Positions 19,177-51,682 of a DNA stretch of 51,682 nt are shown one piece after another. Location: positions 1 to 51,682 of the IMG/VR virus record IMGVR_UViG_2651869781_000017, one strand, 5' to 3'. The stretch is from a virus. Its lineage: Duplodnaviria > Heunggongvirae > Uroviricota > Caudoviricetes. The translations under genes and the position numbers were made by a program. Under the pieces are notes generated by a model, which was given only the letters and a program-made list of their open reading frames with translations, made no database searches and was not told where the DNA came from. The stretch's first letter is position 1; each line of letters opens with the position of its first letter.

Positions 19177-19361
19177 ACGCCACAATTCAAACGATACCAG
19201 AGCTTCTTATCCAGACACGAGGCAATCAGACCGAAGTGGCGAGGATTCTTTCCTGCGCAAGAGGAACAGTGCTCAAGTACAACCGAGACAGCAAAGGCGA
19301 GCGTCACGTAATAGTTAACGGCGTCCTGATGGTCACGCCAGGCAAAAAGGGAAGACGATGA
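19173..19361 (+). CDS. ninH: NinH
   Basis: ...GNQTEVARILSCARGTVLKY... matches lambda NinH (GNQTEVARRLKCSRGTVRKY). Confidence 0.75.
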   Translation: MNATIQTIPELLIQTRGNQTEVARILSCARGTVLKYNRDSKGERHVIVNGVLMVTPGKKGRR

Positions 19362-19981
19362 GACTCGAAAGCGTAGCTAAATTTCATTCGCCAAAAAGCC
19401 CGATGATGAGTGACTCACCACGGGCCACGGCTTCTGACTCTCTTTCCGGTACTGATGTGATGGCTGCTATGGGGATGGCGCAATCACAAGCCGGATTCGG
19501 CATGGCTGCATTCTGTGGTAAGCACGAACTCAGCCAGAACGACAAACAAAAGGCTATCAACTATCTGATGCAATTTGCACACAAGGTATCGGGGAAATAC
19601 CGTGGTGTGGCAAAGCTTGAAGGAAATACTAAGGCAAAGGTACTGCAAGTGCTCGCAACATTCGCTTATGCGGATTATTGCCGTAGTGCCGCGACGCCGG
19701 GCGCAAGATGCAGAGATTGCCACGGTACAGGTCGGGCGGTTGATATAGCCAAAACGGAGCAGTGGGGGAGAGTTGTTGAGAAAGAGTGCGGAAGATGCAA
19801 AGGTGTCGGCTATTCAAGAATGCCAGCAAGCGCCGCATATCGCGCTGTAACGATGCTAATCCCAAACCTTACTCAACCCACCTGGTCACGCACTGTTAAG
19901 CCGCTGTATGACGCTCTGGTGGTGCAATGCCACAAAGAAGAGTCAATCGCAGACAACATTTTGAACGCGGTCACACGTTAG
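19358..19981 (+). CDS. Q: late-gene antiterminator Q (lambda type)
   Basis: 207 aa; translation near-identical to lambda Q as remembered. Confidence 0.9.
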   Translation: MRLESVAKFHSPKSPMMSDSPRATASDSLSGTDVMAAMGMAQSQAGFGMAAFCGKHELSQNDKQKAINYLMQFAHKVSGKYRGVAKLEGNTKAKVLQVLATFAYADYCRSAATPGARCRDCHGTGRAVDIAKTEQWGRVVEKECGRCKGVGYSRMPASAAYRAVTMLIPNLTQPTWSRTVKPLYDALVVQCHKEESIADNILNAVTR

Positions 19982-20023: not shown

Positions 20024-20052
20024 TTGACTTTTTGAATAAAGTTGGGTAAATT
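20024..20052 (+). promoter_or_regulatory. late promoter pR' (-35 TTGACT, 17-bp spacer, -10 TAAATT)
   Basis: Motifs and spacing match lambda pR' directly downstream of Q. Confidence 0.7.
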
Positions 20053-20088
20053 TGACTCAACGATGGATAAATGCACTCGTTAAATAAA

Positions 20089-20116
20089 GCCCTGAGTTAA
20101 TAGCTCGGGGCTTTTT
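20089..20116 (+). terminator. tR'-like intrinsic terminator
   Basis: GCCCTGAG / CTCGGGGC stem (one G-U pair) with 7-nt loop followed by TTTTT. Confidence 0.6.
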
Positions 20117-37927: not shown

Positions 37928-38025
37928 TTCGCTTGGATGCGGCAAAGAAATCAAAACAGTGAAGCCCCAACTGCGGGAACAGTCAGGGCTTCGGTATCGT
38001 AAAACCACGCATAGGAATTAACGAC

Positions 38026-41179: not shown

Positions 41180-41392
41180 ATAGGTCTTGCGCAGGGACGC
41201 GCAAATCATTCGGGATTGCAAGGCTTTGTGCTCTTCTGTTGATGTGTGTCTACATGTTTGAAGATCGTTGTGCCGTATTTGTGACATACACATGACAACA
41301 TCATGCATCAACTTTCTGTTTGTGCCATCAACTATAGCTTAGTGAATGCGGTTAATGCTTGCTAAAACAGATAGTTATGATTGGTGCTACAT

Positions 41393-41439
41393 ATTCGTAA
41401 TGCGAAGGTCGGAGGTTCGACTCCTCTTATCGGCACCAT
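41393..41439 (+). repeat. attR: duplicated 3' 47 bp of thrW
   Basis: Exact copy of 1399-1445; lacks the tRNA 5' half so it is not a functional tRNA. Confidence 0.85.
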
Positions 41440-42263
41440 CAAGAAAATCAATAACTTAGCTTAACTTCTCTAAGAAATTGTATCTTCTGTTATCACTTAC
41501 AAACGCCTATACGTTGTTATGGGCTTTTGGTAGTTTAACACGTATGGGCGAGTAGTTCCCAGGCTCAACCTCGTAACAAGTTCCTTTGAAGCTGGAAGAC
41601 GTGCCACCGTCTCTAAACCTTCTACCAAAACTCTTAGCAAGATGTTCCACACCTGGCGCGGTGTCCAATGATGCTACACGTCGTGAGACGTTGCAGAGGA
41701 TAAACAGGCTAAATGATGGGAAGAGTTTTAAGTGCAATAGTGGATTAAAGCCCACCTCTTCAAAACCTAACTTGATCGGGAAAGAATCAAGCTCTAGCAC
41801 GGTTTCGTCCACCGGAGTACAACGGGTGCCTGATAAGAGAAGAACTGCTAAGACTTCATAGCTTTTGTGAAAAAGCCCTTTTTAGTGGATACGCCTACGG
41901 CGCTTATTTTTTGGTATAACCATCAAAGGCGCTTTATGGCTCCTATTGTCTTGAAAATGTATCTTTACTTGTATTGTGTTTTATGCGTAGTCTCCCTGTG
42001 TAGTATGTAACTTGTTAATTTTCATATGAATACAGAGGCACACGATGAAAAACATTGCAGCTATCAAACGTAATAACCGCAAGATTCACGCTCGTAAGTT
42101 CCTGTCTACGCCAGAGGGAAAAGCCTGGCTAGAGCGTAAACAGCGAGAGAACGAAGAAAGAAAACTCCTTAGTGAGTTGAAATGGCTTAAGGATTGAATC
42201 ACCAGTAGGCGCATAACACATCCAGCGATCAAAGATGTGTTTATGCGCCTGATAGTGAAATTA

Positions 42264-42422
42264 TTAAAGTTTTTTAGTTAATGTAGCCATTGCATGAACG
42301 ATGATCGCTAGTGAATCGATTTTATCTCGAGGGGTAAAATAGATGAGGTATATGATGGTAACAATTACAGCTAAAGTAATTGTGGTTCTGCAGGTTTTTA
42401 AAATGGATGAGATAAAGCGCAT
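42264..42422 (-). CDS. small hydrophobic protein (52 aa)
   Basis: ORF with G-rich RBS; single hydrophobic helix (TITLAVIVTIIYLIYF). Confidence 0.3.
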   Translation of the reverse strand: MRFISSILKTCRTTITLAVIVTIIYLIYFTPRDKIDSLAIIVHAMATLTKKL

Positions 42423-42748
42423 AGATACCCCCTATTGATTTAACAATAGCAAAGTATCATTTATTTTTTATTGCACGCAACATGCAAATTTTCACATATA
42501 ATAGTTTACTATTCACTTTGTATGGTGTCAACAAGATGATGTGTTGTTTTGTTTGATTTGTTCAAGATAATGTTTCATTTTCTCATCTATATAACTTGTG
42601 TTTTAGATAATTTCACTAATTGTAAAAGTTACGTATTGCTTAATAGCTACCTTTTTATCTGAAATCGGCGCAGACGTGATCAATGTTTAACGCGAAGATC
42701 AGCGGCGTCAGGTCCACGCAGCGACAATTCTCAAATATCAAGGAGGCA

Positions 42749-43288
42749 TTACGCCTCCTCTTCTTCCTTCTTGATACGTTGCACCGTTGAAGGAGCAACA
42801 TTAAAGCTCTCGGCGGTTTTACGCACTGACAGGCCATCAGAAAGGGCTTTCTTTATACCTTCTCGATCCACTGCTTTTCCATTACCACGTTTTGTAGGAT
42901 TGACGGCTTGCGCTTCTCGTTTACGTTCTAACATCAGTTCACGTTCACACGTTGCAACTGCCGACAACATCGTAAGCATCATCTTTCCCATCGCGCTTGT
43001 AATGTCTGCAATGATTCCTTCTTTGTGAAATCGAACAATTACACCTCGATTATTAAGTTGTTCAACTAAAGCAAGGATGTCTAAGGTGTTACGTCCTAAA
43101 CGGTCGAGAGAGTGCACGTGTAAGGTGTCGCCTTCTCTCAGATAGGCTAAACACGCTTGTAAGCCTGGGCGGTTAGTGTCTTTACCAGACAGCTTATCTT
43201 CAAAGACTTTATCGAGAGTTACTCCTGCAAGCTGGCGATCAGTGTTCTGATCTACAGTGCTCACACGCTTATAACCGATATTGCTCAT
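42749..43288 (-). CDS. small serine recombinase (resolvase/invertase family)
   Basis: 179 aa; catalytic N-terminus GYKRVSTVDQNTDRQ, LDRLGRN motif, C-terminal HTH. Confidence 0.85.
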   Translation of the reverse strand: MSNIGYKRVSTVDQNTDRQLAGVTLDKVFEDKLSGKDTNRPGLQACLAYLREGDTLHVHSLDRLGRNTLDILALVEQLNNRGVIVRFHKEGIIADITSAMGKMMLTMLSAVATCERELMLERKREAQAVNPTKRGNGKAVDREGIKKALSDGLSVRKTAESFNVAPSTVQRIKKEEEEA

Positions 43289-43940
43289 AAAATCCTCTTA
43301 ATGTGTCGATTTGGCACTACTTCAATGCAAATGAGTATACCGTATTCATTTGGTCTGTTTCAAGCCTTATGGGTACGGAATATTACACGATTTAGCTGTA
43401 TTCATTTGGTATGCCTAATGGATACACAGGGGGATAGATTAAATGTTGTTCTGTTTATACAGGTTTATTTGTTAGATCAACAATTTGGCATTTCTAAACA
43501 GATGTTTGAACGTTGCCAAATGTCTTGACAACACAAGAAAAGGGCTTGCTATGCCACGCATTACACGAAATAAGGCTATAAAAACAAAATAAATTTTAAA
43601 ATTTGCACAAACGAGAGAACTCATTCGACAAATAATAGATTAATTTTTAGCCAACAATTTATGATGGTGCTCTGTAAGCCGCACTACACAAGGATTTGCG
43701 AAAGTGATGTAAAAGTGAAGAAAGTGAGAATTGCCCTTTTAAGCTACTTTTTCATTGAATTTTTAGTATGGAATTACACAGGGAATAGAGAGCATTATTC
43801 TATGATTTACACAGGGAATATAGGGGGATTATGGCACACACATAGAAAGGCATTACACAGAGTGCTATGTGACAAATGGATGTAACGAGAGGTTACATTC
43901 AGCTATCTGAAATGCTCTCTGTAAGAAAGTTGGTAGTAAC

Positions 43941-44052
43941 GGTAGGTCACTGTGAACTAGGGGGGGTAGTTCACTATGAGCTAGGGGGGTAGTTCACTAT
44001 GAGCTAGGGGGTAGGTCACTGTGAACTAGGGGGTAGGTCACTGTGAACTACA
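43941..44052 (+). repeat. five tandem 22-24 bp iterons (GGTAGGTCACTGTGAACTAGGG family)
   Basis: Five direct repeats in two sequence variants, followed by an A/T-rich tract with a (TA)n run near 44100-44127. Confidence 0.8.
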
Positions 44053-45152
44053 ATAAGACTATTAATAAAACTATATTAGATTATTAATTAGATCATAATA
44101 ATAATATTCTTTATATCTATATATATATATATGATCTTTTGCCTTTCGGCGTTAGCTCCACTCTCTGGCAAGCAGCCTTACTCCGCTACCTTTCGGGCTA
44201 CGTTGGCTGGCCTCGTTCCGCTCACACCGAAAGCAAAGCGTTACTTTCTTCGTGTAACTATCGTTGGCGATAACGCCCACGAAGAAATACTATTGCGCTG
44301 TGCGCAGTAAGAGTAATCACCTAACCAATCATACTGATTGCTTACGTGTTAACTCTATCTCTCTACCTCGTAATTACCCTCCTACACTTAATAACTCTCG
44401 TTATTCTCTGTAGTTGTGTAATTACTCGAAGAGAGAGCGGCTAAAGCTCAATTACACTCTGCTTTCCTCGTGTAATTTCACTAAGCCTCAATACAATTCC
44501 ACTTCCTACATTCTGTAGTCGTGTAATTGTTTTCGGTGGAAAAGCCAGAGGCGACACCGAAAGAGAATTCTGATCTTATTAATCTTATCTATCTTAGTTA
44601 ATCTTCTTACTTACTTTATCTACTTTATTATTAATAATAGCTTTATAAGCTCTCTGTAGCTCTCTGACGCAAGAAACAGCATTCAGGAAGGGAATCACCT
44701 TAGAAAAGTGTTCTTTGCGTCATAATGTGTTTTATGAAGGATTCAGAGGTGTTTCATAACAGGAGTGTATAGAGGATACTTTAATTAATTAAAAATAAGG
44801 GGTCTAAATGCTTCTCTAACAGCATTAAGCAGGGTAGGGAATGGAAACGCATTGCCTACATATATAAGCTCACTACAGGGCTTTACAGAGCGTTTTATAA
44901 AGTGACTCTCTATCTTATATCTACCATTACCTTTTCATATACCTAACAAATACAAAATAAGCCCCTTAAATAAGCCTCTGGCGAGCTAAACAGCCATTAG
45001 ATAAGGGAATGTATTGCTTTTATCAAAATCTCGTTAGAACGCGTTTTAGAGCGTTTTAGCGGATAATGAAGAATAGCACTACACAGAAGAGCACGAATTG
45101 CTAAGAAAAAATGTAAGTGCATGAAAAAGATCAGATTTTTTGTGAAAAGGTA

Positions 45153-45181
45153 TTGACAAATGTTTCTTTATATGTAATAAT
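45153..45181 (+). promoter_or_regulatory. sigma70-like promoter (TTGACA, 17 bp, AATAAT) upstream of 45292 operon
   Basis: Consensus -35 with 17-bp spacer to an A/T -10 hexamer. Confidence 0.45.
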
Positions 45182-45291
45182 AGGTATTAGAGGGACAGAA
45201 AAACATTCTTCTCTAAATAATCAAAATCAATGCACTTTGAAGCCGTCAGGCTTGCAAGGTGTTTTTCTTTTAACTGAATAAGGAGTTTTTT

Positions 45292-45480
45292 ATGAAATGG
45301 TTTACACCGGAACACGTCGTCGCGGCATTTAAAAAAGGTGAGCTAACACGCCACCAAGTAGTAATGAATCGTAATATGGCAAGGAGTCGAGGTTATCCAG
45401 AGCGTGAAAAATGTTTCGATGCAGCACTAAAAATTATTGATGAACTAAGAAAAAATGAAAAAGAATCTGAAACAGAGTAA
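45292..45480 (+). CDS. hypothetical small protein (62 aa)
   Basis: ORF with AGGAG RBS. Confidence 0.4.
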   Translation: MKWFTPEHVVAAFKKGELTRHQVVMNRNMARSRGYPEREKCFDAALKIIDELRKNEKESETE

Positions 45481-45499
45481 AGAATAGAAGGAGAAAACT

Positions 45500-45667
45500 A
45501 TGAGCGAAACTAAGAAACCAATTCCGCGCACTTACCTACACGTTGACCCTGAAATCTTCAAGGTTTTATTTGCTGAAGCCAAGAAAAGGCAAATTATGGT
45601 CAGTGATTTGATGTTAGAAATCATTACTGAAGCAGCAGAGAACATCAAACAAAAAAAGGGTAAGTGA
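45500..45667 (+). CDS. putative ribbon-helix-helix DNA-binding protein (55 aa)
   Basis: Beta-strand then two helices pattern (RTYLHVDPEIFKVLFAEAKKRQIMVSDLMLEII); GGAG RBS. Confidence 0.4.
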   Translation: MSETKKPIPRTYLHVDPEIFKVLFAEAKKRQIMVSDLMLEIITEAAENIKQKKGK

Positions 45668-45718
45668 TCCTCATTCACTTTAGTAGCGCATTAAGCGTGA
45701 TTTATAAGGAGATTTTTA

Positions 45719-46411
45719 ATGATTAATCAACTAACTTTTACAAAACACTATGACACGTTTGATAATGTATCAAAGATTTATTCTGATAAATTCCCTCAAG
45801 GAAAAGATTTAGATCTATTACATATTGTGCTTTATTTTCGATTCCTTAGTTATCAGGAAAACAACCTTAATTGTTATGAAAGTCACGAAACATTAGCTAA
45901 GATTTTTAAGTCTTCAGCGTCAACAATTAAACGTAAGATAAACGATCTTAAAGAGATGGGATTATTAGAAACATCCCCACATCCTGATCCGTATATTTCA
46001 TCTTTGATTTACAATGCTCTCCCTCTCACAGATGCACATATTACTCCCCCAGGAGAATCATCACTCTCTGATCTTTCTGAGGCAGAAGAAGCACAGGAAC
46101 AACCTAAAGGCCATAAACAGCCTTCTTTTGATGTTCTTGATGATGATTGGGATACGCCTTTACCCTGGGAGACGGAAGAAACACCTGTTTCATCAAGTGA
46201 AAAGGTAGCTAATGATAATGAGGAGGATGTGTTAGAGAATTTTGCCTCTCTTATCATCCAGGAGAAGACTACAAGAACAGGAGGGGCATCATTTATTGAG
46301 TTTGCAAATTCACTAGCTTATAGACACGGGCTAAAACGACCAAATGGTATTGAGGCATATTTTTCTAAGCATTACCCAAATGTGTATGAAGACTTTGATA
46401 TTCCATTTTAA
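45719..46411 (+). CDS. hypothetical protein with N-terminal HTH and acidic linker (possible replication or regulatory protein)
   Basis: 230 aa; HTH-like segment (HETLAKIFKSSASTIKRKINDLKEMGLL); AGGAG RBS. Confidence 0.4.
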   Translation: MINQLTFTKHYDTFDNVSKIYSDKFPQGKDLDLLHIVLYFRFLSYQENNLNCYESHETLAKIFKSSASTIKRKINDLKEMGLLETSPHPDPYISSLIYNALPLTDAHITPPGESSLSDLSEAEEAQEQPKGHKQPSFDVLDDDWDTPLPWETEETPVSSSEKVANDNEEDVLENFASLIIQEKTTRTGGASFIEFANSLAYRHGLKRPNGIEAYFSKHYPNVYEDFDIPF

Positions 46412-46422
46412 TAAGGAGGGTT

Positions 46423-46701
46423 ATGATTCAATATTTAGTAAAAAATCAAGTAGACAGAATTCAGTGTAATGACACAGGAAAACGCATCTACGAAACACTT
46501 GCTTACCTCTATAAAGGAAAGCCAACACCGCTAAAATATAGCGATGTGTTACACCGAGCAGGGTGCTCTGAAGATGGTTTAAAATTCTGGCTGAAACAGC
46601 TATCAAATTTCGGTGTTATAGAGATTAAAGAATTATCTTTCTCTACATTCAATCTCAAAAGACTGGATAAAGAAATAGTATTCATCTATTCCACTCTCTA
46701 A
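46423..46701 (+). CDS. hypothetical protein (92 aa), possible winged-helix
   Basis: ORF with GGAGGG RBS. Confidence 0.35.
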   Translation: MIQYLVKNQVDRIQCNDTGKRIYETLAYLYKGKPTPLKYSDVLHRAGCSEDGLKFWLKQLSNFGVIEIKELSFSTFNLKRLDKEIVFIYSTL

Positions 46702-46833
46702 AATCTCTCTATGTAATTAAAATATAAAAGGAAAACATTATTATGATAGTAGCTATGTATTGGTTATTGTTCTTTCTCACGTTAGAAACATATTTCGGGG
46801 TGTTTTCCTTTAAAAGAAAAGGAAAAGTAAATA

Positions 46834-47241
46834 ATGGCAAAAAGAAAAAACAACGTTGTTAAGAAAATCGGTGATTCAGCTTCTCTTCTAAGTAAACCTA
46901 AATCTATTCTAAGACGTAAAGACTTTAAAGAGCTAGTTACGCTCTCCAAGCAAAATAGCGCCCCTGGCGAATGGAAAACAGAGATCATAGAACATTCTCC
47001 CTCTGTGCCTTGTGGAGATGAATTTAACGCCTTACAAGAAATCTTATCTTCAACACCTGGCGTATTCTGGAAACCTAGAAAAAGAAAAGAGTATATTGTT
47101 GATAGCTCTGATTTACGCAAATACCAGATTTTAGGATTTGAAGACTATAACCACTACGTTGGTTATCTCGCCACCAATGGCCTAAATAATTTAGTTCCTG
47201 AATTCCATTTAGATAATGATGATCACTATGGAGACTTTTAA
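46834..47241 (+). CDS. hypothetical basic protein (135 aa)
   Basis: ORF with AAGGAAAAG RBS. Confidence 0.35.
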   Translation: MAKRKNNVVKKIGDSASLLSKPKSILRRKDFKELVTLSKQNSAPGEWKTEIIEHSPSVPCGDEFNALQEILSSTPGVFWKPRKRKEYIVDSSDLRKYQILGFEDYNHYVGYLATNGLNNLVPEFHLDNDDHYGDF

Positions 47242-47242
47242 T

Positions 47243-47578
47243 ATGAACAAAAACACGTATGACACAATTTATTCACTAATTAATTATTATGAGGATGATT
47301 ACCTCCTGCCTTTAAACCGTGCTGAACTTGAAGCACACAAAAACTCCACGCCAGCGGCACTAAATGAGGCGTTTAAACACTGGGATTTAGCTGTGAATGC
47401 CTTTGAGATGCTCTGTAAGCGTGTAGAGATGCTCTGTAAGCGTGAAAACGCATACCTGACAGCCGATCAGATATGGGAGCTATCAAACTGGATAGAAGAT
47501 ATTGAATCTGATGTTCGCTATGTGGGAGATGGCCTTATCGAACTCGCTCAACGCTTAGCTGTTATCACAGAAGAATAA
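47243..47578 (+). CDS. hypothetical protein (111 aa) containing a 21-bp tandem duplication
   Basis: ORF contains in-frame direct repeat GAGATGCTCTGTAAGCGTG x2 (EMLCKRVEMLCKRE). Confidence 0.35.
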   Translation: MNKNTYDTIYSLINYYEDDYLLPLNRAELEAHKNSTPAALNEAFKHWDLAVNAFEMLCKRVEMLCKRENAYLTADQIWELSNWIEDIESDVRYVGDGLIELAQRLAVITEE

Positions 47579-47607
47579 AAAAAGCAACAAAAAAGTTGTA
47601 AAATATC

Positions 47608-47636
47608 TTGACATTTCATCTATTGTATGTTAATAT
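47608..47636 (+). promoter_or_regulatory. near-consensus sigma70 promoter (TTGACA, 17 bp, TAATAT)
   Basis: Exact -35 consensus, 17-bp spacer, strong -10; upstream of 47922-49540 gene block. Confidence 0.55.
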
Positions 47637-47921
47637 AATTATATAGGGTGATTATTTTTCCTTTATTGGTTCGATATTAAAAATTCTTCTTGTCGTTAAA
47701 GGGGAGTAAAATCTCCGCTCCCCGCTTCTCCTCCTCCTTAAGTGTCATTATTACCTCTTTTTTCCTTTGTTATGCATACATCTTGGAGTATGCATAACAT
47801 AGGGTAATTACATAGGTACAAGTTAATAAAAGGCGGCTCTAAATGCTGCCTTTTATTTTGCCCGTTATACAACTTAAAAGTTGTATTTCTTACTTTAAAC
47901 AAGGTAACAAGGTTTATATAA

Positions 47922-48134
47922 ATGTTGTTCTTAAATGATAAAGAGCAAATCATCAAGTATCGCGATGAAATGCTAAAGATCAATCCACAAATTACCGAAA
48001 TGGTAGCTAAATACGCTGGGTGTTCTGTCGAGGAAGTAGAAAGATGTGTTGAAAAATATTTTTCTCCTTCTTCTCCGTCTACACCTTCCCTTAATGAATT
48101 AATCAAATTAAAAGCTAAGGAGATTACTAAATGA
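47922..48134 (+). CDS. hypothetical protein (70 aa)
   Basis: ORF; stop overlaps next gene start. Confidence 0.35.
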   Translation: MLFLNDKEQIIKYRDEMLKINPQITEMVAKYAGCSVEEVERCVEKYFSPSSPSTPSLNELIKLKAKEITK

Positions 48135-48493
48135 TTATTGATTTAGACACTCTGTTTCCAGTTCGAAAGACTTTCACAGATATTGTAAGTTATTGTACTG
48201 ATCCGTTTGCCTCTGTAGAAAACAAGGTTTTTGCTTCTCTTCCTGCTGATGTTGAATGCGGAGACTTGATCACCAGCACTGGCGCTAAATATGTATCAGG
48301 AGATGATATCTATGTTGTTATGAGTGAATTTGTAACGGCTGGAGACAACAAGCCTGTAGATGTGCTACGTAGCAATGCTGGTCTTGTCTGCATCAAAGCT
48401 GATGCGCTGAATGCTGTAAGTGAAGCAGCAAAAACAGCATTAATTAAAAAAGGCTTCCAGCTTGAAGGCTTCCACTCTGTTTTCACTTCTTAA
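48131..48493 (+). CDS. hypothetical protein (120 aa), possible virion accessory or decoration protein
   Basis: ORF immediately upstream of capsid-like gene. Confidence 0.3.
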   Translation: MIIDLDTLFPVRKTFTDIVSYCTDPFASVENKVFASLPADVECGDLITSTGAKYVSGDDIYVVMSEFVTAGDNKPVDVLRSNAGLVCIKADALNAVSEAAKTALIKKGFQLEGFHSVFTS

Positions 48494-48511
48494 TAAAAGG
48501 AATAATAATAA

Positions 48512-49540
48512 ATGATTCTAGGTAATGATTACGTTGATTTAGCTCCTTTGTTCTCTGCGCATAGCACTAGAAACTATCTGCTTTCTACTCTCGACTTCAC
48601 TGATCCGGTGGGCGTTAGTTCTCATAAAGTAGCTGTTTCCCAGCTTGTCGAAAGCAACGAATCTCTCTTTAACAAAGAGACAAGCCGTTTTAGTTCTGAA
48701 CACAATGTTACTAAGCGAGAACAAGGTAAAGAATGGCTGATTGAAATCCCTTACTTCCTGCGTGAAGATGTGATCCGTCCTTCTGATGTTCAAGGCAAAC
48801 GTAAACCTGGCACTGATTTTCAGGAAACACTCACTGATATTTATGCTGACTATGTTGCTAAACACCACGTAGCGTATCAGCGCACTAAAGAAAGCGTATT
48901 GGCTGCATCTCTGTTTAGCGGTAAAACTTACACGCCTAAAACTGATGATGTGTTAATTGAGTGGGGCAAGCTGTTTAACGTATCAGCTATGAAAGCCACT
49001 GTGAACGCTTCCAGCACTGACACCACGAAGATTTTTAAAGAATTTGATCAGATTGCTACTGACATTATCGAGAAAGCACAAAGCCAGGCGGCTGCTGTAG
49101 AGCGTATTGTTGTTTTCTGTAAGCCGGAAGCCTTCTCTGCAATTCGATTCTCTGCGGGTATGGCAAACGCATTCCAGTATGTAAGCCCACTGGAAGAAGG
49201 GAACGTTGTGTATCAGCGTCGTGACCTGCTACCAGGAGTGACAGCGTTCACTATTCCAGGAACTAACATTGATGTTATTAAACTGGTAGATCCGCTACAC
49301 CTTGCACATATGACCGCTGACGCTGTAGCCGTGCCTAAATTCGCTAAAGGCTCTAACGTCTACCAGGCCATCTATGGGGCGGCTTCCAGCACCTTTGAAC
49401 TGATCAATGCCGCTCCTGCTGAGGTTTACAGCTACAGCTATGAATCTTCTCGTGGTGATGCTGTTAACGTTGTTACAGAGAATAGCCAGATGGTTGTAAA
49501 CCACGGTGTAGGCTTCTCCGTTCAAATCACTGTTAAATAA
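48512..49540 (+). CDS. putative major capsid protein (possible T7 gp10-like, HK97 fold)
   Basis: 342 aa; local resemblance to T7 gp10A (ours RIVVFCKPEAFSAI versus T7 RVFYCDPDSYSAI) and similar length; from memory only. Confidence 0.4.
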   Translation: MILGNDYVDLAPLFSAHSTRNYLLSTLDFTDPVGVSSHKVAVSQLVESNESLFNKETSRFSSEHNVTKREQGKEWLIEIPYFLREDVIRPSDVQGKRKPGTDFQETLTDIYADYVAKHHVAYQRTKESVLAASLFSGKTYTPKTDDVLIEWGKLFNVSAMKATVNASSTDTTKIFKEFDQIATDIIEKAQSQAAAVERIVVFCKPEAFSAIRFSAGMANAFQYVSPLEEGNVVYQRRDLLPGVTAFTIPGTNIDVIKLVDPLHLAHMTADAVAVPKFAKGSNVYQAIYGAASSTFELINAAPAEVYSYSYESSRGDAVNVVTENSQMVVNHGVGFSVQITVK

Positions 49541-49625
49541 TATTTAACGTGTAATAGAGGCGTGGCGTGTATTCACGCTTCGCCTTTTTTTTATTTATTT
49601 TTAAATTTTGAGAGGTGATTAAAAT

Positions 49626-49829
49626 ATGGAAGTGATTCTGAAATCAAAAAATGGTGTCCACGTACATTTAGATGCTAATGATTCTAGAGGCTTGTTAAAT
49701 CTGAAATATCTATGTTCTCTCTTAGATGTTCCATATGAAGGAGTAAAAGCCCGTATGTTCAGACTAAACGAGAGTATTGATCAGGCTCTACACCATTTCT
49801 TAAGTAAAGAAGGTGGTAAAAATGATTAA
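49626..49829 (+). CDS. hypothetical small protein (67 aa)
   Basis: ORF between capsid-like gene and large downstream ORF. Confidence 0.3.
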   Translation: MEVILKSKNGVHVHLDANDSRGLLNLKYLCSLLDVPYEGVKARMFRLNESIDQALHHFLSKEGGKND

Positions 49830-49843
49830 TAAGGGGATTTTAA

Positions 49844-51682
49844 ATGTTAGAAATTAACACTTCTAAAATTAAGAACACAGTTACATTTAGTGTAGATAAA
49901 GACAGCTTGAAAAAAGCGAAAGACTCTATTACAGGCTTAAAGGAATTCGCAGAAAATATCAAGCCTGCTAAATTAAGATTTGATACTGTCACTAAAGGCT
50001 ATAAGAAAGCACAAAGTGAAGTAGATAAGATTGCTCAACAGAAAGCGAAAAACGAAAAACAGAATCAAAGAGCACAAGCTGCCGCAGCAAGAGCACAGGC
50101 AAGGCAACAGCAACAAATAGCAGCACGTAAGGAGAAAGCTGAACTAAAGCTTTTAGACGTTGGATCAAGCATTAGTGCAATGCACCGTCTTTCTGTAGCT
50201 GAACAATACAAAGCTATTGCACAGGCTAGAGAGATAGCAAAACAATATGAGCAAGGGGCTATCTCGCTTGCACGTATGAATAGCCAGATGAAACGCTTAC
50301 AACAGCAACAACGTAAGATTAATGGCAACAGAAAAGCTCAATTAGCCCCCGTTAAGGGAGGATCAGGGAATTCCGCCACTATGGGCGCTCTGTTATTTGG
50401 AGGCGCTACGGCGGCTGCTGGCGTGATGGCTGTAAGTAAAACCGCCGAGTTTGTTAGTAAAAGTTTCGCTAACGCAGAGACACAAGGAGAATTAATCCAA
50501 CGTGCAAGGCTTGGCGGTGTAGACGTTAACCAGATGTATAACATTACAGAATGGGCGTATAAAAACGGCGTTGACTCTATGATGGGTGATCAAGGGGCTA
50601 GAAAATACCTGGATCAGATGAAAGATGTTAGGGAACGTGCTACCAAATCTTATGACGAGGCTGAATATGTAGTTGATAAGAAAACAGGGAAAGGCATATG
50701 GAAAGGCGGTGATAACGGTATTAATGAACTTCTAAACATCGGTGTTATTAACAAAAGCGACCTTAAAAAATTTGCTGATAATCCAGCCGGATTAATTTCT
50801 AAGGCTGTTAATGGAATGATGAAAAAAGGGTTTTCAGATTCTCAAATTGGACAACGTTTAGAAGACCTGGGCGATGATTTGATGCTTACGTCAAAATATT
50901 GGCAACGTTCCGTTAAAGATGTACAAGAAAGTATTAATCAGCAAAAAGCCTCTGGAAAATGGCTAACAGAAACACAGCAAGACTCTATCGTTAAATTCAG
51001 AGAACTAAACAGACAGCTTTCGCAGCTTTCTGATGCAAGACAAGTAGCATTTGTAGACGGGTTTATGAAATCTCTCGATCCAAAAGTAACGGAAGAGTTT
51101 TTGAAAAACCTTTCTAATCTCACTCCGTATTTTACGAAGCTGGGAGAAGCTACAGGAAGTCTCTTTGAAGCTATTATGAAGATTGTAAACTGGTTTAATC
51201 GTAATGATGATAAGACAGAGGCTATTCAGAAAAATTTAGGTGATGCACCGCCATTAAGCAATGAAGGAATGAAACAGAATCTTTCTAATCTCGTTCCTGA
51301 CCAATATAAAGGCGCTGGCACTGCAACAACTACACCTGATAATAGTCATTCTCTCTTTAACACGATTAAGGGATTGCTTTTCGATGATAAATCTTCTGTG
51401 TCAGATGTAAAAATGTCAGTCAGCGAAGCACCGATAACCAATCTCAAACAGGGTGCTTTAAATAATCTTGCAATGACAACTCCGGCTTATAATTTATCTC
51501 CTGTATTCAATCTGAATCCGACATTTGAAGTGGTAACGGAGGTTCCGCTTACTATTAATTCTGACACGTCCAGATTAAGCGATTATGTGGATTTTACAGC
51601 GAGAGCAAGTCGGGATAGCTTCTTGAAATCATTAACATTAACCAGCTTATCAGGACAATCTAACGGCGGGGAATTCCCGCCA
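49844..51682 (+). CDS. large coiled-coil protein, 3'-truncated by window end (at least 613 aa)
   Basis: Open frame from ATG 49844 to window end with no stop (absent from ORF track because no stop); Q/A/R-rich coiled coil then Gly/Ala hydrophobic segment. Confidence 0.5.
   Translation, partial: MLEINTSKIKNTVTFSVDKDSLKKAKDSITGLKEFAENIKPAKLRFDTVTKGYKKAQSEVDKIAQQKAKNEKQNQRAQAAAARAQARQQQQIAARKEKAELKLLDVGSSISAMHRLSVAEQYKAIAQAREIAKQYEQGAISLARMNSQMKRLQQQQRKINGNRKAQLAPVKGGSGNSATMGALLFGGATAAAGVMAVSKTAEFVSKSFANAETQGELIQRARLGGVDVNQMYNITEWAYKNGVDSMMGDQGARKYLDQMKDVRERATKSYDEAEYVVDKKTGKGIWKGGDNGINELLNIGVINKSDLKKFADNPAGLISKAVNGMMKKGFSDSQIGQRLEDLGDDLMLTSKYWQRSVKDVQESINQQKASGKWLTETQQDSIVKFRELNRQLSQLSDARQVAFVDGFMKSLDPKVTEEFLKNLSNLTPYFTKLGEATGSLFEAIMKIVNWFNRNDDKTEAIQKNLGDAPPLSNEGMKQNLSNLVPDQYKGAGTATTTPDNSHSLFNTIKGLLFDDKSSVSDVKMSVSEAPITNLKQGALNNLAMTTPAYNLSPVFNLNPTFEVVTEVPLTINSDTSRLSDYVDFTARASRDSFLKSLTLTSLSGQSNGGEFPP

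Follow-up and report, generated by a model that had tools for sequence, protein, structure and literature searches.

In phage lambda, late control operates through the promoter PR', the 6S RNA (194 nt), the terminator tR' and the antiterminator Q. In the satellite P4, immunity depends on the PLE leader, premature termination and the CI RNA (Rfam C4, RF01695), a terminated leader that acts in trans. Two other arrangements combine a non-coding RNA with termination: the put RNA of HK022, about 70 nt long with two defined stem-loops, mediates processive antitermination in cis, and in type III toxin-antitoxin loci (ToxIN) a promoter, a non-coding RNA, a leaky terminator and the protein genes follow one another, an order that sets the RNA-to-protein ratio.

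Here we describe an intergenic control region (positions 47579-47921) in a 51,682-nt stretch of Escherichia coli chromosome, hereafter the window, which lies directly upstream of the capsid genes of an AT-rich island. Judged by its sequence, the region is closest to the lambdoid PR'/6S RNA/tR' module in architecture and to P4 RNA immunity in biology, and is a member of neither family, since the island has no Q-family gene and its RNA has no C4/CI RNA match or target repeats; it may nonetheless act in a comparable way. With the lambdoid module it shares a strong sigma70 promoter directly upstream of structural or late genes, a short non-coding transcript (a predicted ~215 nt against the 194 nt of lambda) and an intrinsic terminator which, by its position, would have to be read through for the capsid gene to be expressed. 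Unlike that module, the island leader is lineage-specific, being large and highly structured in relatives, and operator-like sites flank the unit.

Regarding Q, a Pfam scan that covered ten ORFs of the island, located between 45292 and 49829, gave no Antiterm (PF03589) or other antiterminator domain, whereas the Q protein of the prophage resident in the window scored 1.3e-57 in the same library. For p120a, the gene just upstream of the island promoter, Pfam gave no match, and this gene is variable between lineages. The prophage Q gene is itself closely followed by a lambda-type PR' with a qut-like sequence (TTGACT...TAAATTTGACTCAACGATGG, 20025-20110) and by a terminator about 60 nt further downstream. 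A hijack of this resident Q was considered and rejected, because the island promoter bears no resemblance to the prophage PR'/qut. The hexamer GATTAT, at about +7 to +12 of the island transcript, matches a -10-like pause hexamer at four of six positions and by inspection is not conserved in the other lineages.

The likeness to P4 immunity lies in an E. coli satellite whose structured leader is predicted to yield a small RNA, in control by termination and in a lineage-specific content; the controlled genes differ, being capsid genes here and early and replication genes in P4. Rfam 15 scans of the window and its relatives returned no C4/CI RNA (RF01695), and a repeat search combined with RNAduplex, both internally and for the leader, found no significant complementarity of the P4 seqA/seqB/seqC type. 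As with HK022 put, a structured RNA sits just downstream of a promoter and upstream of terminators in a phage-like element, but no similarity was detected and Rfam was blank. The order of promoter, non-coding RNA, terminator and protein genes is also that of ToxIN; unlike ToxIN, the island RNA contains no tandem repeats and the downstream genes form a capsid module instead of encoding an endoribonuclease.

The island and its capsid module

The window begins with proA (1-1254) and the tRNA-Thr gene thrW (1369-1444), and continues with a P22-like prophage that carries the lambda-type Q gene (19358-19981), a sar RNA (37958-38024) and a tailspike. The island (34-42% GC, ~12 kb overall) extends from about 41.2 kb to the window end. 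In other E. coli genomes thrW directly adjoins the island, which is carried by 308 of 5426 complete E. coli genomes. Its main features outside the control region are the following.

42749-43288, minus strand: small serine recombinase of the resolvase/invertase family
43941-44050: iteron array, 4.8 tandem copies of the 22-nt iteron GGTAGGTCACTGTGAACTAGGGG, then AT-rich sequence with a (TA)n run
45153 (45153-45291): second strong promoter, here the early promoter, TTGACA-17-TGT-AATAAT, 11/12
47922-48134, plus strand: p70, first gene of the capsid module, with an N-terminus conserved in lineage C
48512-49540: major capsid protein (Pfam Phage_cap_E, 4.7e-14)

The recombinase matches gamma-delta resolvase (E = 4e-29) and a DNA-invertase chain in the PDB (4e-26), and is a candidate for island integration, resolution or inversion; repeated GTATTCATTTGGT motifs occur immediately 5' of its start (42749-43450). 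The iteron array and the sequence following it (43941-44135) form a probable replication origin, situated in an ORF-poor region of ~2 kb (43300-45290) where TTACACAGGGAATA-like motifs are also repeated, at ~43770-43860. After the early promoter come small genes and a Rep-like HTH_36 protein, then the control region, and then the capsid module in the order p70, p120b, the Phage_cap_E major capsid protein, p67 and a tape-measure-like protein. Complete copies of the island also encode a protein annotated as 'phage baseplate protein'. Two further details of the gene content are a perfect 21-nt tandem duplication within p120a (47405-47444), which gives rise to the repeated peptide EMLCKRV, and a strong intrinsic terminator (49556-49595) directly 3' of the capsid gene and 5' of p67 and the tape-measure-like gene.

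Several island proteins are related to those of phage phi92. Identity to phi92 gp135 is 60% for the baseplate-annotated protein, to gp134 53% for the N-terminus of the tape-measure-like protein (along an 87-bp stretch its gene has 85% nucleotide identity with many phi92/rV5-like phages), and to gp124 22% for the capsid protein. On account of this relatedness, the island is probably a satellite of phi92-like myoviruses (Justusliebigvirus). Furthermore, the 55-residue p55 matches inny_185, from the phi92-like phage inny, at every one of 53 aligned residues (100% identity), and the segment 45488-46057 (also L110:2501-3125) shows 97-99% DNA identity to the phi92-like phages inny and muut; together these matches point to a recent exchange between island and phage. 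No portal or terminase was seen in the island, either in the window (41200-51682) or in a related locus (L002:14206-27821). In the literature searched, no description of the island family or of its RNA turned up, and the family, borne by Enterobacterales, is apparently undescribed.

The promoter, the predicted leader RNA and the terminator

The control region contains a promoter, a predicted folded transcript and a terminator, together with two small palindromes, O1 and O2, placed upstream and downstream of this unit. Its features are, in order:

47585-47600, no strand assigned: O1, operator-like, CAAC-AAAAAA-GTTG(TA), centred at about -51.5 from the presumed start, shortly before the -35 hexamer
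47608-47636, plus strand: late promoter, -35 TTGACA (47608-47613), 17-nt spacer, -10 TAATAT (47631-47636), with a TG at 47628-47629 that makes an extended -10
47643-47859, plus strand: predicted non-coding transcript or leader (type A RNA, ~215-220 nt), both ends deduced from the sequence
47701-47723, plus strand: hairpin 1, GGGGAG(U)...(G)CUCCCC, -12.2 kcal/mol, within the minimum-energy fold
47724-47739, plus strand: pyrimidine tract GCUUCUCCUCCUCCUU, which includes CCUCCUUA, directly after hairpin 1
47764-47803, plus strand: large hairpin, 16-nt arms (47764-47779 and 47788-47803) complementary at 15 of 16 positions, 12 nt of them perfect, 8-nt loop
47825-47859, plus strand: intrinsic terminator, stem AAUAAAAGGCGGC/GCUGCCUUUUAUU, 7-nt loop, U-rich tail, -17.4 kcal/mol
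47867-47886, no strand assigned: O2 or 5'-UTR hairpin, ATACAACTT-AA-AAGTTGTAT, 9-bp arms around a central AA, core CAAC-TTAAAA-GTTG
47898-47913, plus strand: tandem AACAAGGT, two copies, including the weak Shine-Dalgarno AAGG of p70; one substitution among 26 type A sequences

With a score of 10/12 the late promoter is the best site between 46500 and 49000, and an equal or better score on either strand arises in about 1% of dinucleotide shuffles of 47579-47921. Promoter-like sites scoring at least 9/12 are not enriched in the whole region (8 found, 7.3 expected). An A/T-rich, UP-element-like tract (47576-47607) precedes the -35 hexamer. Both hexamers are invariant in the 26 distinct sequences of the window's own lineage (type A, see below), and lineages B, C, D and E have an equivalent promoter at the corresponding place. 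Between the terminator and p70 no promoter candidate was found in the window.

No plus-strand ORF of at least 40 codons exists within 47579-47921, and the indels that separate relatives, located in linkers, measure 1, 3, 9-10 and 17 nt, sizes which argue that the region is non-coding. The RNA would begin at A47643-A47645 (AUAGGGU...) and end in the U tract past the terminator stem. Its predicted folding energy is -65.9 kcal/mol, far below that of shuffled sequences (z = -6.3). The pyrimidine tract contains in CCUCCUUA a sequence that we take to be identical to the 3' end of 16S rRNA, and CCUCC-type tracts are present in the RNAs of lineages C and D as well.

The large hairpin has a predicted RNA energy of -19.7 kcal/mol, and a perfect inverted repeat of at least 12 nt is rare in shuffled sequence (P ~0.001). 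Each arm contains the self-complementary octamer TATGCATA, which occurs within 47400-48100 in these two copies only. The sole variant of the hairpin among the 26 type A sequences, A47790G, is found in about half of them; it keeps a U-G pair in the plus-strand RNA, yet breaks the symmetry of the DNA and destroys the second TATGCATA. This favours an RNA hairpin as the explanation of the large palindrome.

The terminator is a GC-rich hairpin, GGCGGC-UCUAAAU-GCUGCC with one G-U pair, whose arms are extended to 13 nt (47825-47837 and 47845-47857) by pairing between an A tract and a T tract, and which is followed by TTTTATTTT (the tail may also be given as UUUUAUUUU). It thus has the GC-rich stem, the short loop and the 3' U tract on the transcribed strand by which intrinsic terminators are recognized in sequence. 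A consensus terminator scan with a strict tail rule did not list the hairpin at 47825-47859; in our reading, too few T residues are left for that rule once the stem has been extended by its A/T pairs. Type A sequences share an identical stem and differ in the loop alone (C47839T). A GC-rich hairpin with a U tract lies 40-90 nt before the p70 ATG in every lineage (about 60 nt in the window, where the ATG is at 47922), with stems that differ in sequence from one lineage to another.

An initial annotation of this locus had proposed a near-perfect sigma70 promoter at 47608-47636, a GGCGGC/GCTGCC hairpin with a T-rich tail, and a regulatory role for this stretch ahead of the capsid-like genes. The promoter is borne out by its score, by the shuffles (P ~0.01) and by its conservation across lineages, the hairpin is present and behaves in the comparisons as a conserved intrinsic terminator would, and the regulatory role is supported, with the region lying immediately before the capsid genes. 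The perfect 10-bp palindrome of the same annotation also exists, but is part of the longer repeat with 16-nt arms described above. All four features reported there are thus present and jointly exceed chance, and the interpretation given to them is partly supported.

Searches for known relatives or partners of the RNA gave the following results. At the gathering threshold, Rfam 15 had no match for the window or for the related loci L003-L009; at an E-value threshold, 47400-48100 and L005:5700-6420 gave chance-level matches only, so that none of the forms covered by these scans (A, B and C) corresponds to an Rfam family. ARAGORN found no tRNA- or tmRNA-like element. Mimicry of helper phages, or an antisense relation to them, was rejected after a blastn comparison of 50,697 phage records with types A, B and C, which returned nothing or noise, and so was pairing in trans with the island early leader or with ribosome-binding sites, for which RNAduplex gave no significant duplex in comparison with shuffles. 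The only direct repeat in the window RNA, AUAGGGUGAUUA / AUAGGGUAAUUA, is without a good complement.

The early promoter shows an equal layout: a leader of ~85 nt, a terminator-like hairpin (GCACUUUGAAGCC-GUCA-GGCUUGCAAGGUGU with a U tract) and then p62 (45292). Promoter, leader and terminator thus constitute the general design of the island. The sequence of the early hairpin is conserved in A, B and C, even where promoter and leader differ.

Five lineages and their predicted RNAs

About 100 related loci, gathered through the capsid protein, have a conserved gene order, and their capsid proteins are 55-99% identical to that of the window. By the interval before p70 these loci group into five lineages, A to E. 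Its size differs, with an RNA of ~220 nt in A, 550-610 nt in C and ~340 nt in D, and ~1 kb of non-coding DNA in each of B and E, where an additional terminator-like hairpin lies upstream of the final one. All five share the same layout, namely the upstream gene, a strong sigma70 promoter directly behind it, an ORF-free stretch with GC-rich hairpins, a terminator, an inverted repeat and p70. The RNA would start with (A)UAGGG in A, B, C and D, and with GUGGGG in E.

The evidence for structure is strong for the type C RNA, from loci of Buttiauxella, Kluyvera, Citrobacter, Scandinavium and metagenomes. RNAalifold predicted 61 pairs in ten helices, 22 of the pairs with compensatory changes. In this alignment 95.7% of cells are paired, compared with 44-49% in controls with slid partners, and 23 pairs show double changes, compared with 4-9 after sliding; none of 500 shuffles attained the observed value on four of the five measures. 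By this covariation, the long form seen in type C is indeed a structured RNA. Among its features (L005:5775-6324 and others) are a 5' hairpin with a T-loop-like loop, AUUCGAAUC, as well as GNRA and UUCG tetraloops, and a hairpin loop displays CCUCC. In type D there is a compensatory change from A-U to G-C.

Homology between the window RNA and the long type C RNA was rejected: a covariance model of the type C 5' domain detected nothing in the window RNA or in types B, D and E, so that the covariation evidence from type C is not directly transferable to type A. What is detectably common to the lineages is the promoter, the 5' AUAGGG, short motifs and the architecture, and not a homologous RNA. 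The large palindrome of the window is absent from all other lineages, whose different hairpins covary as RNA.

Within type A, the alignment of 26 distinct sequences varies too little for a structure test, and its two wobble-compatible changes would arise by chance with P of roughly 0.1-0.25. These two changes (A47790G and A47869G) and the fixed G-U of the terminator are all G-U pairs in the plus-strand RNA, and would be A-C mismatches on the minus strand. The stems are otherwise invariant, and such variation as exists is in keeping with RNA. Purifying selection on the region is evident from the low sequence diversity, since pi is 0.033 in the RNA, 0.022 in the promoter and 0.009 in the 61 nt past the terminator, against 0.05-0.19 at third codon positions of the flanking genes.

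Type D has a further element past its terminator. Here TATAAATA, the T4 late-promoter consensus, is conserved (L100:1866-1900 and 11 other loci) ~20 nt 5' of the Shine-Dalgarno sequence that serves the p70-like gene, and because of this position it may constitute a separate, helper-dependent promoter. Type B and the window instead have TATATAAATG across the start codon. A T4-type late promoter past the terminator of the window was rejected, as TATAAATG overlaps the start codon and cannot serve p70; such an element is well placed only in type D. For phage rV5, sigma70-like promoters have been reported throughout, along with a different late motif (PMC3606486).

Operator-like sites and the proposed control of the capsid genes

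O2, taken alone, is not significant (shuffles yield an inverted repeat of at least 9 nt with P ~0.05). It becomes so through its second copy and through conservation in other lineages. Indeed, O1 is a 16-nt direct repeat of 47870-47885 with 14 of 16 positions identical; the two account for two of the five occurrences of CAACN6GTTG in the window, where 0.79 are expected, and in type A loci AACWWAAAAGTT is found only at O1 and O2, with further copies at the equivalent positions of some type C loci. The pattern NAAC-N6(AT-rich)-GTTN, counted over 30 representative loci, has 25 matches in ~5.4 kb of promoter and post-terminator segments and another 25 in the remaining 263 kb, where ten of them are start-codon context. 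For (T/C)AAC-N6-GTT(A/G) the enrichment at these promoters is roughly 80-fold. In type A and in one type C promoter class the motif begins 23 nt upstream of the -35 hexamer; lineage E and four further type C promoter classes have TAAC-N6-GTTA within the spacer between -35 and -10, the classical position for a repressor. Moreover, the flanks of both copies co-vary between lineages, with AAAAGTTGTA present twice in A and AAAAGTTAAT twice in the loci L088 and L029, and the segment that contains O2 (47861-47921) is the most conserved of the region (pi = 0.009).

The O motif is therefore probably an operator. The small palindrome of the initial annotation belongs to this operator-like class; its arms measure 9 bp, and the second copy, O1, had been missed. 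O2 may in addition act as an RNA hairpin in the 5'-UTR, since A47869G, carried by 20 of the 26 type A sequences, gives a G-U pair on the plus strand. Regarding the protein that would bind the operators, Pfam, PHROGs and PDB sequence searches with p55, p62 and p92 were uninformative, those of the PDB yielding nothing significant. The idea that the motif is a phi92 late-gene element was rejected, as phi92 45-94 kb and the segment of phage inny both lack it.

On balance, we lean towards reading the region as the late control region of the capsid module of a satellite-like island, in which a repressible promoter is combined with a structured leader gated by a terminator. Transcription would start near 47643 from the extended -10 sigma70 promoter with its A/T-rich upstream tract, and the first ~215 nt would form a folded non-coding leader comprising hairpin 1, the CU-rich tract and the large hairpin. 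The majority of transcripts would end at 47825-47859 and so yield a separate small RNA, and only those polymerases that read through would reach p70, p120b and the capsid gene. The same terminator would also block read-through from the upstream early operon, as no terminator lies between p120a and the late promoter. Termination might be relieved by leakiness or by an antiterminator encoded by the island or its helper. O1 and O2 bracket the unit, and one dimeric DNA-binding protein would most likely bind both, repressing or otherwise controlling the promoter, perhaps by looping the DNA. A role in cis is favoured by the invariant position of the unit, by the equal design of the early operon and by the failure to find another promoter for p70. 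Helper- or induction-dependence, which the initial annotation had considered, is plausible in view of the links between the island and phi92-like phages. The regulated switch of palindromes proposed there is retained as far as the small palindrome may be an operator; the features had been treated as separate protein sites, and the transcription unit of a structured RNA had been missed.

The leading alternative, to which we give a distinctly lower but still appreciable probability, is a stand-alone small-RNA gene, whose ~215-nt product would act in trans, either on helper or island mRNAs through the CU-rich, anti-Shine-Dalgarno-like tract or as a protein decoy, with the terminator serving just to end this gene and the capsid genes expressed by incidental read-through or from an unrecognised promoter. 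The unit indeed has its own strong promoter and its own terminator, its predicted fold is stable (z = -6.3), and the long forms of other lineages, with ten helices and strong covariation, go far beyond the needs of an attenuator. CCUCCUUA, presumably the 16S rRNA 3' end, and the loop-exposed CCUCC of type C would suit such a role, and a lineage-specific content fits an arms race or a specificity determinant. Nevertheless, no significant complementarity to the island early leader or to any island ribosome-binding site was detected, the phage records contained no similarity or antisense match, and the RNA is not conserved across lineages; the invariant position immediately 5' of the capsid module, for which no other promoter is evident, speaks for a role in cis. 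This alternative overlaps the preferred reading, in which the terminated leader could act in trans too, as the P4 CI RNA does. Since its lineage-specific content exceeds what a simple attenuator requires, our analysis suggests an additional role for the RNA itself.

The initial annotation taken literally, with every palindrome a DNA operator for a protein and the transcribed sequence devoid of any RNA role, seems to us improbable. The small palindrome is of an operator-like class and the two identical 8-bp palindromes (TATGCATA) stand 18 bp apart. The variant A47790G, however, destroys the second TATGCATA in about half of the type A sequences and preserves the pairing of the RNA, the octamer is confined to these two copies within 47400-48100, and the other lineages lack the large palindrome and have in its place hairpins that covary as RNA.

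Still less credence can be given to O1 and O2 as crossover sites between which the island serine recombinase would excise, invert or swap a cassette, excision joining the early operon to the capsid genes. The arms of O2, 9 bp in inverted orientation around a central AA, presumably resemble the layout of the hix or gix sites of DNA invertases; as direct repeats O1 and O2 bracket a cassette whose content differs completely between lineages and whose flanking motif is kept; and the island encodes a protein of the resolvase/invertase family. Against this, a synthetic deletion-junction query, for which 30 of the 308 E. coli genome matches were listed (two of the 30 not full-length), found the cassette kept in all 28 full-length matches listed (two pieces, ~590 bp), so that excision at O1/O2 was rejected for want of a deletion junction among the matches listed. 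A native 1-kb query was collinear in all matches listed, the sole two-piece match covering an annotated IS1 transposase. In other lineages, moreover, the motif lies inside the promoter spacer instead of flanking a cassette, and the recombinase gene lies at a distance of 4.3 kb.

That the features came together by chance in AT-rich intergenic DNA, in which matches resembling promoters or terminators are frequent (8 promoter-like sites for 7.3 expected) and a 9-bp palindrome alone has P ~0.05, is scarcely credible, being contradicted by the conservation of the architecture in ~100 loci and five lineages and by purifying selection (pi 0.009-0.033 against 0.05-0.19 at third codon positions), as well as opposed by the inverted repeat (P ~0.001) and the promoter (P ~0.01).

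Beyond the reading of the region as late control of the capsid module, we propose tentatively, and as a possibility that we rate well short of even, that the RNAs of this cassette (about 220 nt in the window, 340-610 nt in relatives) are an undescribed, lineage-variable structured class and the specificity determinant of a new family of satellites of phi92-like virulent myoviruses, as a helper-sensing antitermination switch or as a trans-acting anti-helper RNA, whose timing would be set by the TAAC-N6-GTTA operator pair. If these proposals are true, the region would represent the regulatory core of an apparently undescribed island family with its own phi92-like capsid, tape-measure and baseplate-type genes, and would show how a satellite of virulent phages times its structural genes. 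In turn, the very few families of large structured RNAs known from enterobacterial mobile elements would gain a new one, with clear covariation.
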